Source: a virus. Taken from it: a DNA stretch of 10,180 bases. Position 1 is the stretch's first letter. Each line of letters starts with the position of its first letter. Positions 657-8,107 of the stretch are shown piece after piece. Under the pieces are notes generated by a model. It worked only from the letters and a program-made list of their open reading frames with translations. It made no database searches and was not told where the DNA came from. The translations under genes and the position numbers were made by a program. Location: UHGV virus genome UHGV-1550197; one strand, written 5' to 3'.

Positions 657-692
657 TTTATTCTCCAAGATGTTTAATTGCGGTACAGGTAT

Positions 693-720
693 ATAATATC
701 ATGTCCTGTACCAAAGTAAA
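693..720 (-). promoter_or_regulatory. candidate T4-early-type sigma70 promoter for the 121-aa ORF
   Basis: Minus strand reads GTTTACT (-35 TTTACT at 715-720), 16-nt spacer, TGA-TATTAT (-10 at 693-698). An inverted repeat GGTACAGG / CCTGTACC (705-712 / 682-689) brackets the -10. Confidence 0.4.
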
Positions 721-723
721 CAA

Positions 724-1056
724 TTATTTTACTACTTTCCAGTGCTGCATGTCAAGTTTACCAACTTTTTTCATCTTCTCAATTAAACGTTCTGCACGTT
801 GGCGAGCTGTAACATAATGCCATTCGTCTAATTCATTTTGTTCAATTTTTCCAACGATTACTGTATTCAATTCATAAATCCAACCAGTAAAGAAATTATG
901 AACTTGAATTGTAAAGGTGAAATCTGTTCCCATACCTTCTGTTGTTTCTACTTCAATAATATCACCTTCAACTGCCATTAAGAACCACATAGTTTCATTA
1001 TATTTACCATTGAAACATTTAGTTTTAACTGTAGCGTTCAGATTAATAGTTTTCAT
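724..1056 (-). CDS. hypothetical protein (110 aa)
   Basis: ATG at 1054-1056 with strong SD AAGGAG 7 nt upstream; a candidate promoter lies just upstream. Product not recognised. Confidence 0.65.
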   Translation of the reverse strand: MKTINLNATVKTKCFNGKYNETMWFLMAVEGDIIEVETTEGMGTDFTFTIQVHNFFTGWIYELNTVIVGKIEQNELDEWHYVTARQRAERLIEKMKKVGKLDMQHWKVVK

Positions 1057-1083
1057 TTTATTCTCCTTTGTTTGTGTAAGATA

Positions 1084-1112
1084 ATACTATCACAAAGGAA
1101 CCGTACTGTAAA
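1084..1112 (-). promoter_or_regulatory. candidate T4-early-type sigma70 promoter for the 110-aa ORF
   Basis: Minus strand reads GTTTACA (-35 TTTACA at 1107-1112), 17-nt spacer ending TGA, then TAGTAT (-10 at 1084-1089). It sits immediately downstream of the intrinsic terminator. Confidence 0.4.
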
Positions 1113-1132
1113 CAACTTTGTGCAATCTTTGG

Positions 1133-1162
1133 AAAATAAAAAAGGACTCCCGAAGGAGTCCT
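1133..1162 (-). terminator. rho-independent terminator (minus strand)
   Basis: Minus-strand RNA: stem GGACUCC / GGAGUCC (1155-1161 / 1144-1150), UUCG tetraloop (1151-1154), then UUUUUUAUUUU (1133-1143). Starts 5 nt after the stop of the 58-aa ORF. Confidence 0.8.
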
Positions 1163-1166
1163 CAAC

Positions 1167-5285: not shown

Positions 5286-5475
5286 ACGTTTTCCATGGTA
5301 AAGGCAGTTTAGTTTTCTTTACTACTAGTTCAACATCAGGATTCTTTTCTCTTAATTTAAGGCATTCCTCCCATGCTCTATTTTCACTAGTAAATACACA
5401 AAATTGCCCATTACTAGTACCAACTAAACCGCTATTTACAATAACAATAGCCCAAGTTTCATGGTGCCAAGCCAT
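5278..5475 (-). CDS. hypothetical protein (65 aa from the ATG overlapping the pseT stop; alternative start at 5505 gives 75 aa)
   Basis: ATG 5473-5475 overlaps the pseT stop (TAATG) and has GGGAG 7 nt upstream; the longer track ORF would start 30 nt inside pseT. Confidence 0.5.
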   Translation of the reverse strand: MAWHHETWAIVIVNSGLVGTSNGQFCVFTSENRAWEECLKLREKNPDVELVVKKTKLPLPWKTYE

Positions 5476-6380
5476 TAAAAATCTCCCGAAGCGACTTGCC
5501 AGCATTCAACACCGATGCGGCGCCACATTTCAACTACTTGAGTTCGGTCATCAATAGCTAATTTCACATCAAAATGTGGTGCGATGTGTTTCCAGAAAAT
5601 TTCTTCTTTAACTACATCATCTTTACGGGTATCGCCTTGTTCGCGTTGACACTGCATGACTAATGGAACACCAGCAATGTCCTCAACCCATTTACGGGTC
5701 ATACGATAATATTTCGTTGGATCTTCTTCGGTTCCACTTTCACGGCCTGAAACGACTACGATTTGATAACCCATAAGAGCATACATCTTGGATAGTTCAA
5801 CGACCATTGGATTAATAATATCGGTATCGCATTTTTCAAGGTCATAAGGACCACGACCATTCATTTTTGCTAACGTGCCATCAACATCAAAAATAACTGC
5901 TTTTGGTTTACCAGGAGTCCCTTTATATACCGGAAGACCGAGATACTCTCGCATGCTTTTATACATTGAGCGTAAAACATCAATTGGTACTGCTTTAGTT
6001 CCGCGTTTTGAGTTGCGTTTAGCCAATTCAGTCCAAGGAACATCAAACACTTTATATTCAATTTGATGCCCAAGCTCTTTGGCAAACTCTTCCCAAACCT
6101 TACGTCGTTCAGGATTCAGATTAGTATCTGAAACAATTACACCCTTCGTTGCGTCTTGGCAGAGAATCATGTTAGCAACATCATGCTGCATGTAAGTTAC
6201 GATACCTTCTTTATTTTTGGTATACTTGTACTCATCGCGTTCTTCATGTGCCATAATAGATTGGCGATAGTCATCACGATTGATATTATAAAACCCTGGA
6301 TTTTTAGCAATAAATTCACGAGCCCAAGTACTCTTACCAGAACCAGGACAGCCAATAGTCAAAATAATCTTTTTCATCAT
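5475..6380 (-). CDS. pseT: polynucleotide 5'-kinase / 3'-phosphatase (Pnk), 301 aa
   Basis: Translation [23 protein letters not shown]... has the N-terminal Walker-A kinase motif (GCPGSGKST) and the C-terminal HAD-type phosphatase motif (DVDGTL), and matches T4 Pnk as I remember it. Possible alternative start one codon downstream (ATG 6375-6377). Confidence 0.95.
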
Positions 6381-6679
6381 TTAATTCCTAAGAAAACTTC
6401 AAGAATACGAATATTATGCTCACGCCGCCCTTTATATAATTCAGCTGTTGATTGATTCACCGATTTGCTCTGAACATTAGATGAAATAAATTTTATCATG
6501 TGATTTTTAAGCTGATACATATCAAACCCACGAGCTTTTGCTTCTTTTCGTAGGGCTTTACCAGCATCATCTAAAGCTTTAGCATGTTCAATGTCTTCGC
6601 TAATGCTTGATGCACTTTCATGGCATACATCAATGTAACGGTCCGAGCATTCAATATAACGTTCTAGCAGAGTTTTCAT
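6377..6679 (-). CDS. hypothetical protein (100 aa), pseT.1-position ORF
   Basis: ATG 6677-6679; its stop overlaps the pseT start (ATGA). Product not recognised. Confidence 0.65.
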
Positions 6680-6906
6680 TTATTTTTCTCAACTAATGAT
6701 TGAATATAATCATGCAGGTCTTTAGATGCTTTGCCCCACTTATTTTGGTATTCATTTTTAAGATTAGCACGTGATTGAGCTAATAAAACATCATTAGTTG
6801 GAGGTAAAGATTCTAATCGTTGAATCTGGCGACCATAAATCATTGCAGCCATCTCGGATTCATAAATCAATTCTTTGAGATGTTCAAATTGATGCCATGA
6901 AATCAT
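6676..6906 (-). CDS. hypothetical protein (76 aa; 78 aa if started at ATG 6910-6912)
   Basis: The ATG at 6904-6906 has AAGAGGA 9 nt upstream and overlaps the o-spanin stop (ATGA); the upstream ATG has only 3-nt spacing. Product not recognised. Confidence 0.55.
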   Translation of the reverse strand: MISWHQFEHLKELIYESEMAAMIYGRQIQRLESLPPTNDVLLAQSRANLKNEYQNKWGKASKDLHDYIQSLVEKNK

Positions 6907-7202
6907 TTGCATTTATCCTCTTTTAGCTCTTGACGATAATAACATATCATAGTTTTTTGGTCATGTACATATCGTTTTACATCATTAAGCCAAATACGAA
7001 ATTCCTGGGAATCTTCAAATGGCATACCGACCCAAGCTTTACCATCAATAACTTTAACTTGCCAAGATAGTTTAGCTTCATCATATGACTTTATCTGCAC
7101 AGGCCAATTAGGATGAACTGTTTCTTTCTTTACTTCTAGAGGCTTTGTCGAACAACCAACTAGAAGACCAATAGATAATATTACTGCTGATAGTTTAATC
7201 AT
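6903..7202 (-). CDS. pseT.2: outer-membrane spanin-like lipoprotein (o-spanin), 99 aa
   Basis: N-terminal signal peptide with lipobox L-V-G-C (MIKLSAVILSIGLLVGCSTKP...); immediately downstream of, and 4 nt overlapping, the i-spanin-like gene. In T4 the spanin pair is pseT.3/pseT.2 in this position. Confidence 0.7.
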   Translation of the reverse strand: MIKLSAVILSIGLLVGCSTKPLEVKKETVHPNWPVQIKSYDEAKLSWQVKVIDGKAWVGMPFEDSQEFRIWLNDVKRYVHDQKTMICYYRQELKEDKCK

Positions 7203-7552
7203 TTAGAAAGGTCCTGGATGTCTTCTGCGAACTTGTTGAAGGAGTTGTTGATTTGTTTTTCAACCAATCCTGGCTTATGAGCCACCACATCCGCCTTCTT
7301 TGCGTCTTTGCGCAGCTTTTCATTTTCACGCTCAATAGCAGCAATTGCCTCACGATTTTTATTATTCATCGCATCAATATAATTATACTGAATTCGCAAA
7401 TTATTTAATGCTAAGGCGTTTTCATTGGCTGTTTTTGTAATTTCAGTAACTGATGTTTCTAATCTTTCTACCTTATTTTTTAAAATAATAGATGTTCCGC
7501 CAAATGCTATTACAAGTAATAGCAATCCAGCTGTAAAATTACTTACATGCAT
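7199..7552 (-). CDS. pseT.3: inner-membrane spanin-like protein (i-spanin), 117 aa
   Basis: Single N-terminal transmembrane segment (FTAGLLLLVIAFGGTSIIL) followed by a charged, likely coiled-coil domain; 117 aa; precedes the lipoprotein gene. Matches T4 PseT.3 architecture. Confidence 0.7.
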   Translation of the reverse strand: MHVSNFTAGLLLLVIAFGGTSIILKNKVERLETSVTEITKTANENALALNNLRIQYNYIDAMNNKNREAIAAIERENEKLRKDAKKADVVAHKPGLVEKQINNSFNKFAEDIQDLSK

Positions 7553-8046
7553 AAAGTTTTAATAACCTCTATAATATCGTCTTGAGAAAGACCGTTAATT
7601 AAAATATGATGTTCAGCTGGAGATTTAGAAATTTTAAAGCATGCCTCAACATCTTCTGCCATATCCGATGCGCTACGATTTGGATTACTAATTCCAAGAC
7701 GATGTTTTCCCGTTAAAGGATTAACGATGATATAGCATTTACAGCTATTGATATGAACATTAGGTTGAGTCTGATTAATGAACACTTCACAATCATACTT
7801 AGCGAGTTGATTTTCTAAAAAGACTTTCATCTCTTCAACCGCATCAGGAAGCATATCACGGGCTTGCTCAAGACGACGATTTCGATATTCTTTAATGGTC
7901 GTTTTCCGCTTGACTTGCTTAGCTAAATCTTTCTTAAGATCGGTGATATATCCAACTCGACGATTTCCTTTGAATACAGAAATCCCATCTGTAGTATCAC
8001 CGTATGCTTCAACGACCATTTCAGTAGTAATAAGCTGCAAATCCAT
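7543..8046 (-). CDS. alc: Alc (blocks host transcription elongation on cytosine DNA), 167 aa
   Basis: Translation (M)MDLQLITTEMVVEAYGDTTDGISVFKGNRRVGYITDL... matches T4 Alc as I remember it. The second ATG (8044-8046) has GAGGA at 7-nt spacing; the track ORF starts one codon earlier. Confidence 0.9.
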   Translation of the reverse strand: MDLQLITTEMVVEAYGDTTDGISVFKGNRRVGYITDLKKDLAKQVKRKTTIKEYRNRRLEQARDMLPDAVEEMKVFLENQLAKYDCEVFINQTQPNVHINSCKCYIIVNPLTGKHRLGISNPNRSASDMAEDVEACFKISKSPAEHHILINGLSQDDIIEVIKTLCM

Positions 8047-8050
8047 CATA

Positions 8051-8107
8051 AAGTCCTCATGTTATGTCAGTAAGACTACTATAACACAACATGAGGGACT
8101 TGTAAAC
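8051..8107 (-). promoter_or_regulatory. candidate early promoter for alc inside a 13-bp inverted repeat that covers the alc RBS
   Basis: Minus strand GTTTACA (-35 TTTACA at 8101-8106), 17-nt spacer ending TGT, TATAGT (-10 at 8078-8083). Inverted repeat AAGTCC(C)TCATGTT (8088-8101 against 8051-8063); the 3' arm contains the GAGGA SD. Confidence 0.45.

Follow-up and report, generated by a model that had tools for sequence, protein, structure and literature searches.

The window analyzed here is the whole of a 10,180-base stretch of the virus genome UHGV-1550197, and the subject of the analysis is a set of four motifs in it that resemble T4 early promoters and whose surrounding hairpins may hide the ribosome-binding site (RBS) of the next gene. 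The window is 97-98% identical to many Tequatrovirus (T4-like) genomes and is collinear with T4 from ~129.5 to 138.4 kb. The minus strand carries all of its genes, in the order nrdB', denA, rnlA, alc, pseT.3, pseT.2, pseT.1, an extra 100-amino acid (aa) open reading frame (ORF), pseT, cd.5, cd.4, cd.3, a 175-aa ORF, cd.2, cd.1, cd, 31.2, 31.1, 31, rIII, 30.9, 30.8, and 30.7. The genes directly downstream of the four motifs are those for gp30.7, gp30.8, the 175-aa ORF, and alc. Two of these had been called unknown ORFs in an earlier reading made from the sequence alone (the sequence-only reading); they were identified as gp30.8 (PF06019) and gp30.7 (PF06919).

The hexamer GTTTAC occurs exactly four times on the minus strand (Table 1), and all four copies lie in intergenic gaps, which make up ~10% of the window. 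Four more copies are found on the plus strand, all of them intragenic. The bare hexamer is not enriched, with 8 copies on both strands compared to 5.1 expected, and it is informative only through its strand, its position, and the composite motif to which it belongs. The composite GTTTAC-N15-19-TGnTAnnnT gave 3 matches, compared to 0.04 expected and none in 200 shuffles, and the gene 30.7 site is a fourth match with N14. Counted from TTTACN, spacers of 17, 17, 17, and 16 nucleotides (nt) are followed by TGn and a -10 hexamer at every site. On direct reading of the sequence, an A-rich stretch around -40 to -44 is clear at 30.7, 30.8, and the 4799 site and is weaker at alc, where the fit is limited to A-40, A-41, and A-44.

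In T4 early promoters, which belong to the UP/-35/TGn/-10 class, GTTTAC occupies -36 to -31 and the sequence from -40 to -44 is A-rich (PMC2988021; PMC1524935). The window sites share with these T4 early (Pe) promoters the GTTTAC -35, the A-rich upstream stretch, the GT-rich/TGn element, and a -10 in which -11 is A and -7 is T. No difference was found at the promoter level, and this part of the cassettes is already known biology. The same four sites are present in T4, where a 15-kb stretch contains no other strict match and all four lie on the coding strand. We infer transcription starts at the 7th nt after the -10. This rule places the start at the T4 cd.3/cd.2 site at 133295, which is the number in the name Pe133295 in the T4 GenBank record, and it predicts T4 starts at ~136300 (alc), 130274 (30.8), and 129883 (30.7). 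In ES12, a close relative with a complete genome, the strict motif occurs 31 times, all on one strand, compared to ~1 expected in shuffled sequence, and each copy is followed by a Shine-Dalgarno (SD) sequence and an ORF within 130 nt. These data support the assignment of the four sites as probable T4-type early promoters for the host sigma-70 RNA polymerase. The sequence-only reading had counted GTAAAC four times on the plus strand (GTTTAC on the minus), placed all four in intergenic gaps, described an extended -10 after 16-17 nt, and recognized the T4 early-promoter pattern. All of this was borne out, since the minus-strand count is exact, the gaps precede the four genes named above, all the defining elements are present, and T4 has the same sites, one of them named.

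Table 1. Features of the four promoter cassettes and their genes in the 10,180-base window. SD, Shine-Dalgarno sequence; MFE, minimum free energy; CDS, coding sequence.
Feature	Position	Strand	Details
alc promoter, -35 GTTTACA	8101..8107	minus	identical in T4; GTTTAC itself at 8102-8107
alc promoter, TGt and -10 TATAGT	8078..8086	minus	predicted start ~8071 (A)
alc hairpin	8051..8101	minus	5' arm 8081-8101 is the spacer; -10 and predicted start in loop
alc hairpin, 3' arm	8051-8068	minus	contains SD GAGGA (8054-8058)
alc CDS	7543..8049	minus	inhibitor of host transcription
175-aa ORF promoter, -35 GTTTAC	4799..4804	minus	equivalent to T4 Pe133295
175-aa ORF hairpin	4766..4793	minus	encloses TGa and -10 TATTAT (4775-4783); MFE -16.3 kcal/mol
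175-aa ORF SD GAGGA	4752-4756	minus	beyond reach of the hairpin; predicted start ~4768
175-aa ORF	4217..4744	minus	phrog_3710, function unknown; no counterpart in T4; between promoter cassette and cd.2
Terminator (intrinsic) after gene 30.9	1142..1163	minus	GAGGACTCC-TTCG-GGAGTCCTT, then T run; just upstream of 30.8 promoter
30.8 promoter, -35 GTTTAC	1108..1113	minus	
30.8 hairpin	1063..1100	minus	5' arm 1092-1100 in spacer; MFE -12.1 kcal/mol
30.8 hairpin, loop		minus	TGa and -10 TAGTAT (1084-1092), predicted start ~1077
30.8 hairpin, 3' arm	1063-1071	minus	overlaps SD AGGAG (1063-1067)
Gene 30.8	724..1056	minus	PF06019
30.7 promoter, -35 GTTTAC	716..721	minus	
30.7 hairpin	681..715	minus	core GGTACAGG/CCTGTACC (705-712, 682-689); MFE -15.6 kcal/mol; encloses TGa and -10 TATTAT (693-701); predicted start ~686; SD GGAG (663-666) outside
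Gene 30.7	291..656	minus	PF06919

An inverted repeat surrounds the -10 at alc (8055-8067/8084-8096), 30.8 (1064-1071/1092-1099), 30.7 (682-689/705-712), and the 175-aa ORF (4766-4793). At all four promoters, the 5' arm lies between the -35 element and the -10, the -10 is in the loop, and the predicted start falls either in the loop or in the 3' arm. When the sequence between the -35 and the AUG was folded at each site and compared with dinucleotide shuffles, this gave z-scores of -6.2 for alc, -4.2 for the 175-aa ORF, -2.3 for 30.8, and -3.9 for 30.7. The MFE of the alc hairpin is -24.8 kcal/mol, and none of 200 shuffles folded as well. Three inverted repeats bracketing the -10 had been proposed from the sequence; all three are real, and the fourth, at the 175-aa ORF, had been overlooked. 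The proposal that each 3' arm overlaps or adjoins the SD of the downstream gene holds at alc, where the arm contains it, and at 30.8, where the arm overlaps it, but not at 30.7, where the arm ends 15 nt upstream of the GGAG.

Next, the predicted accessibility of the SD was compared between read-through RNAs, folded from 40 or 100 nt upstream of the -35, and proximal RNAs, folded from the predicted +1. At alc, the probability that the SD is unpaired was 0.03 on read-through RNA vs 0.75 on proximal RNA. The helix is ~20 base pairs (bp) long, with a 5' arm that begins right after GTTTACA and a 3' arm that contains GAGGA, and among the 19 window genes with a recognisable SD, that of alc is the least accessible. 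At 30.8, a 9-bp stem gave 0.10 vs 0.83. The SD of the 175-aa ORF was not masked (0.5-0.8 on read-through RNA vs 0.88 on proximal RNA) and neither was that of 30.7 (0.70-0.73 vs 0.63). RBS masking relieved by the internal promoter is therefore strongly supported at alc, on the basis of thermodynamics and of covariation across many genera. It is plausible at 30.8, where the hairpin is weaker, a terminator and an alternative pairing have to be considered, and conservation in other genera is poor. Masking is not supported at 30.7 in this phage or at the 175-aa ORF; for 30.7, the earlier suggestion of a folded-away RBS fails, as predicted SD accessibility is unchanged.

The rnlA-alc junction was then compared in 15 genera from a phage collection and at 40 IMG/VR loci found with an Alc profile. 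The profile, built from 16 sequences, was needed because an IMG/VR search with a single protein gave only near-identical phages. The layout upstream of alc, consisting of GTTTACA, an anti-SD arm, TGn and -10, an SD arm, and the AUG, was found in Tequatro-, Karam-, Gelderland-, Moon-, and Jiaodavirus, in Roskilde-, Braga-, Dhaka-, Winkler-, and Kanagawavirus, and in several further lineages. The two arms change together in at least 12 genera, and examples of compensating arms from different lineages are TCTCCGTTTAGTT/AACTAAACGGAGA, TCCTCATCAG/CTGATGAGGA, ACCTCTCATTTT/AAAATGAGAGGT, and ATCCCATTTTG/CAAAATGGGGAT.

Three tests of the pairing were made. In an alignment-free test with 30 alc-upstream regions from many genera, duplexes between the 15 nt that follow GTTTAC and the SD region of the same sequence had a mean energy of -15.4 kcal/mol, compared to -7.6 kcal/mol for non-cognate pairs of arms, and the cognate partner ranked 1-4 of 30 in 24 of the 30 sequences. 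In a structure-blind MAFFT alignment, 81.9% of cells were paired, compared to 72.4% when shuffled and 37-58% when slid; changes on both sides were seen at 7 of 13 pairs, and none of 500 shuffles reached the covariation score. A covariance-model alignment of 99 sites gave 87.5% paired vs 60.3% shuffled, with all 13 pairs changed on both sides, although this alignment leans towards the structure because it was fitted to it. Together, these comparisons show that pairing between the alc arms is under selection.

One genus has a different arrangement between rnlA and alc. In Gaprivervirus, a partial alc duplicate and a terminator take the place of the alc cassette. The duplicate is a short ORF resembling the N-terminal part of Alc (phage VR25, L011:150-500; also L034, L035, and L061), with a terminator-like hairpin ahead of it and no GTTTAC promoter.

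Hairpins of this kind recur at other promoters. In Moon-, Karam-, and Gelderlandvirus, the site orthologous to that of 30.7 has a clear SD-masking hairpin (CTCCGTTGTATG/CATACAACGGAG), and in Tegunavirus the SD is masked by compensatory arms (CTCCGAGGTTT/AAACCTCGGAG). The form seen at this site in Tequatro-, Dhaka-, and Gaprivervirus is non-masking. In ES12, the -10 is enclosed by at least 6 predicted pairs at 22 of the 31 early promoters, and at 9 of the 31 SD masking depends on the spacer (spacer-shuffle p <= 0.05), compared to ~1.5 expected. A hairpin that encloses the -10 is therefore a general feature of these promoters, and SD masking is found in a subset of them. As modeled in ES12, the mask, which is conserved by covariation, would be present at ~30% of early promoters. 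The masked ES12 genes include regB and denV, whose promoters (L067:18559-18619 and L064 ~2158, respectively) have strong SD-masking hairpins of the same design. The predicted probability that their SD is unpaired was 0.00-0.02 on read-through RNA vs 0.47-0.76 on proximal RNA.

These cassettes resemble two known systems in T4-type phages. The first is the PeSL (promoter-early stem-loop) cassette, in which a stem-loop and an SD accompany an early promoter (Arbiol et al. 2010, PMC2839356; Comeau et al. 2014, PMC4122927). All four window sites have the same parts, namely an intergenic AT-rich upstream region, a sigma-70-type early promoter, a stem-loop, an SD, and a start codon, and all four fit the published PST/T4 consensus TTTACW-N17-TAYWAT. 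The stems of RB49 and phi1 likewise lie between the -35 and -10 elements or overlap the -10. In PST, a T4 relative, the stems are instead placed just upstream of the promoter, whereas here the stem encloses the -10. PeSLs recur within a genome, as do the 31 cassettes of ES12, and they have been linked to insertions, deletions, and replacements of small ORFs, for which the counterparts here are the 175-aa ORF and a duplicated alc cassette in ES12. The two PeSL papers treat the stem-loop as a terminator or attenuator and as a recombination site or linker, and neither translation nor the ribosome is mentioned in them (PMC2839356; PMC4122927). Unlike PeSLs as published, the hairpins described here have no U tract, and they include a subset in which the SD forms the 3' arm and covaries across genera.

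The second system consists of the RBS-sequestering hairpins of T4 e, soc, 49, and I-TevI, which are relieved by an internal promoter (PMC3014915). In those genes, as predicted here for alc and 30.8, the SD and/or the AUG is held in a helix on long transcripts, and RNAs that start at a promoter within the structure are missing the 5' strand and are translated. The analogy drawn in the sequence-only reading with e, soc, and I-TevI was right in principle, but those genes use late promoters (TATAAATA) and the hairpins silence early and middle read-through RNA. The timing logic is therefore reversed in the present cassettes, where the internal promoter is an early sigma-70 promoter, the spacer itself is the anti-SD arm, and expression would be limited to the immediate-early period. 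An RBS mask with an early promoter in the hairpin thus extends a known T4 principle and is not a new kind of system. The list of T4 hairpin cases in a review (PMC3014915) does not include alc, 30.8, regB, or denV. We found no literature tying alc, 30.7, or 30.8 to an RBS hairpin, although the older T4 literature lay outside the search and an earlier description is possible.

The reading that we favor, with moderate confidence, is that the early promoters of the window are built as PeSL-like cassettes and that the RBS is masked on read-through RNA at alc and, more weakly, at 30.8. In all four cassettes, the spacer would serve as the 5' arm of the hairpin, with a loop that holds the -10 and the start, and with the 3' arm downstream. 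Since the promoter lies inside the hairpin, RNA from the cassette's own promoter would lack the 5' arm, and read-through RNA would contain both arms. Read-through RNA from nrdB-denA-rnlA would lock the alc RBS in the ~20 bp helix, and promoter-proximal immediate-early RNA would leave it open. Alc blocks transcription of cytosine-containing host DNA, and this arrangement may make Alc synthesis depend on the early promoter of alc itself and shield it from transcription that comes from upstream. The silent read-through RNA might also be exposed to Rho or nucleases; such a polarity mechanism has been described (PMC2988021). At 30.7 and the 175-aa ORF, the hairpins do not touch the SD and so would have another role, such as attenuation, RNA 3'-end protection, or service as a recombination linker.

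Several observations weigh against RBS masking as the purpose of these hairpins. The SD is left unmasked at 30.7 and the 175-aa ORF, which make up half of the window sites, and at 13 of the 22 ES12 promoters whose hairpin encloses the -10. At orthologous sites, the hairpins switch between masking and non-masking forms. Because non-masking hairpins are common, the hairpin probably has a more general role to which masking could be secondary. In Tegunavirus and one other lineage, the hairpin upstream of alc encloses the -10 and misses the SD; in Mosigvirus and two others, there is only a tiny hairpin inside the spacer, and one lineage has none. Immediately upstream of the 30.8 cassette is a strong intrinsic terminator (1142-1163), and read-through there should therefore be rare or limited. 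Also at 30.8, the spacer arm CTTTGTG (1091-1097) can alternatively pair with CACAAAG (1116-1122), upstream of the -35. This pairing would free the SD on read-through RNA, so the element may have two states. Lastly, the stems have 35 G-U pairs vs 28 A-C mismatches, in an alignment that also included reverse-strand matches, which does not show that the arms act in sense-strand RNA rather than in DNA. Our confidence in RBS masking is held at a moderate level mainly because the model leaves the non-masking hairpins unexplained.

Reuse of whole cassettes was seen in two places. The cassette at 4799 (4742-4804) is the same as the T4 Pe133295 cassette up to the SD, but it drives the 175-aa ORF here and cd.2 in T4. 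The 175-aa ORF is followed by cd.2 with overlapping stop and start codons, and the indel lies exactly at the cassette boundary, which is what the PeSL shuffling model predicts. In ES12, a second, near-identical copy of the alc promoter and hairpin, identical through CATGAGGA, is found at ~59195 (L065:10132-10195), ~16 kb from alc and upstream of an unrelated 96-aa ORF. Both cases fit the idea of cassette shuffling.

Intrinsic termination was considered as a function of the hairpins themselves. In the 22 ES12 hairpins, the 3' arm is followed by 8 nt that are rich in A and contain a mean of 1.4 T, and the true terminators of the window have T runs. The lack of a U tract after the 3' arm argues against intrinsic termination, and this reading was rejected.

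The alternative that survives best is that the hairpins have one of the roles discussed for PeSLs, that is, attenuation or termination of read-through, protection of the 3' ends of upstream mRNA, or provision of homologous linkers for gene shuffling. The overlap with the SD would then be incidental or a way to save space. We judge this unlikely, though it deserves to be taken seriously. One RB49 stem-loop reduced reporter expression as much as a strong terminator did (PMC2839356; PMC4122927), non-masking hairpins around the -10 are at least as common as masking ones, and the reused 4799 and alc cassettes stand before different ORFs. The missing U tract speaks against termination, however, and the 3' arm at alc tracks the SD by compensatory changes in at least 12 genera, which would not be required of a pure terminator or linker.

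Another possible explanation is translational coupling, in which the alc RBS stays closed until a ribosome finishing rnlA melts the 5' arm, and alc on long RNAs would depend on translation of rnlA. In every genus examined, 0-5 nt separate the rnlA stop codon from the GTTTAC downstream of it, and in several the two overlap as TAGTTTACA. We nevertheless consider coupling quite unlikely. A ribosome unwinds mRNA only ~5 nt past the A-site codon, and the first paired base is 7-10 nt past the rnlA stop codon, so at most 0-1 pair would open at alc. The 30.8 cassette comes after a terminator and ~50 untranslated nt, and genome compaction is also a simple explanation for the close position of the stop codon.

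We give very little weight to the idea that the hairpin guards a GGAG-type SD from RegB or RNase E/G and so prolongs the life of read-through RNA instead of stopping its translation. RegB cuts the GGAG of early SD sequences and is blocked by secondary structure (PMC3014915). Like RegB targets, 30.8 and 30.7 have GGAG followed by an A-rich tract (GGAGAATAAAATG); GGAG is found in many alc orthologues, and there is a masking hairpin at regB's own promoter. In Tequatrovirus, including this phage, however, the alc SD is GAGGA and has no GGAG, and an SD shielded in this way could not be used for translation, which brings no gain for that gene.

Least credible of all are explanations at the level of DNA, namely a cruciform, a site for a dimeric protein at the promoter, or chance palindromes in AT-rich spacers. 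The G-U and A-C counts do not favor sense-strand RNA. Against a sequence-specific protein site, however, the sequences of the arms are free to vary as long as they still pair. The arms are also not part of the open-complex bubble, which spans -11 to +3 (PMC2988021), and chance is excluded by the fold z-scores of -2.3 to -6.2 and the shuffle controls.

Returning to RBS masking, it is quite possible, though somewhat less likely than not, that a sizeable fraction of early promoters in the Straboviridae are self-insulating, with a spacer that doubles as an anti-SD and genes that are translated only from RNA of their own promoter. Candidates for this class are alc, regB, denV, and 30.8, along with 30.7 in other genera. 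In T4, a strong promoter is found every 1-2 kb along the long same-strand arrays of early genes, and downstream genes are therefore present on many overlapping transcripts. How dose and timing are kept separate among these transcripts has not been fully explained so far. If early promoters are self-insulating, read-through RNA from the dense upstream promoters would be translationally silent, which would amount to a general, evolutionarily maintained control of dose and immediate-early timing and would account for the restriction of Alc, RegB, and similar proteins to the first minutes. The PeSL stem-loops would also gain a translational function that their discoverers did not consider. For payload genes placed behind T4-type early cassettes, the 5' arm would have to be kept or removed on purpose. 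The identical alc cassette in T4 makes masking directly testable there.

A separate RNA element may lie in the rIII-30.9 gap. Here the minus strand has a ~150-nt non-coding, GC-rich segment (1465-1612) that is missing from T4. Its counterparts in distant genera (Jiaoda-, Moon-, Karam-, and Dhakavirus and others) are still 83-94% identical, a much stronger conservation than that of the neighbouring proteins. RNAalifold gave a multi-stem structure of 45 pairs with compensatory changes at 22 of them, and G-U pairs far exceed A-C mismatches, favouring the gene-sense strand. A promoter-like TTTACG-N17-TGtTATTTT lies just upstream. The segment had no Rfam match even at E = 10 and contained no tRNA; across the window as a whole, no Rfam family reached its gathering score. 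A 20-nt core pattern from the segment was absent from 185,579 bacterial and archaeal genomes, and its 20 matches in IMG/VR all fall on large contigs of 93-178 kb, mostly T4-like in size. Several of these are T4-like contigs that were also recovered by the Alc profile. The segment looks like a candidate for an undescribed phage RNA.

The remaining observations concern other parts of the window. The 48 bases at the minus-strand end of the contig (10133-10180) read ...GTCTCGTGGGCTCGGAGATGTGTATAAGAGACAG, which we take to be Illumina Nextera/Tn5 adapter. Alignments with relatives begin only near base 49 of the window's minus strand, and this end is a library artefact and not phage sequence. The extra 100-aa ORF (6377-6679), in the gap between pseT.1 and pseT, has no counterpart in the T4 annotation. 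A pattern search found no MotA-type middle or late promoter feeding rnlA, and the T4 middle-promoter table lists none. The late-promoter consensus TATAAATA has its sole minus-strand copy in the window at 2129-2136, between gene 31 and rIII, upstream of rIII. A MotA-box middle promoter (TGCTTTAA...TATTAT) is present upstream of gene 31 on the minus strand, at 2503-2527, and matches the mapped T4 promoter P31.

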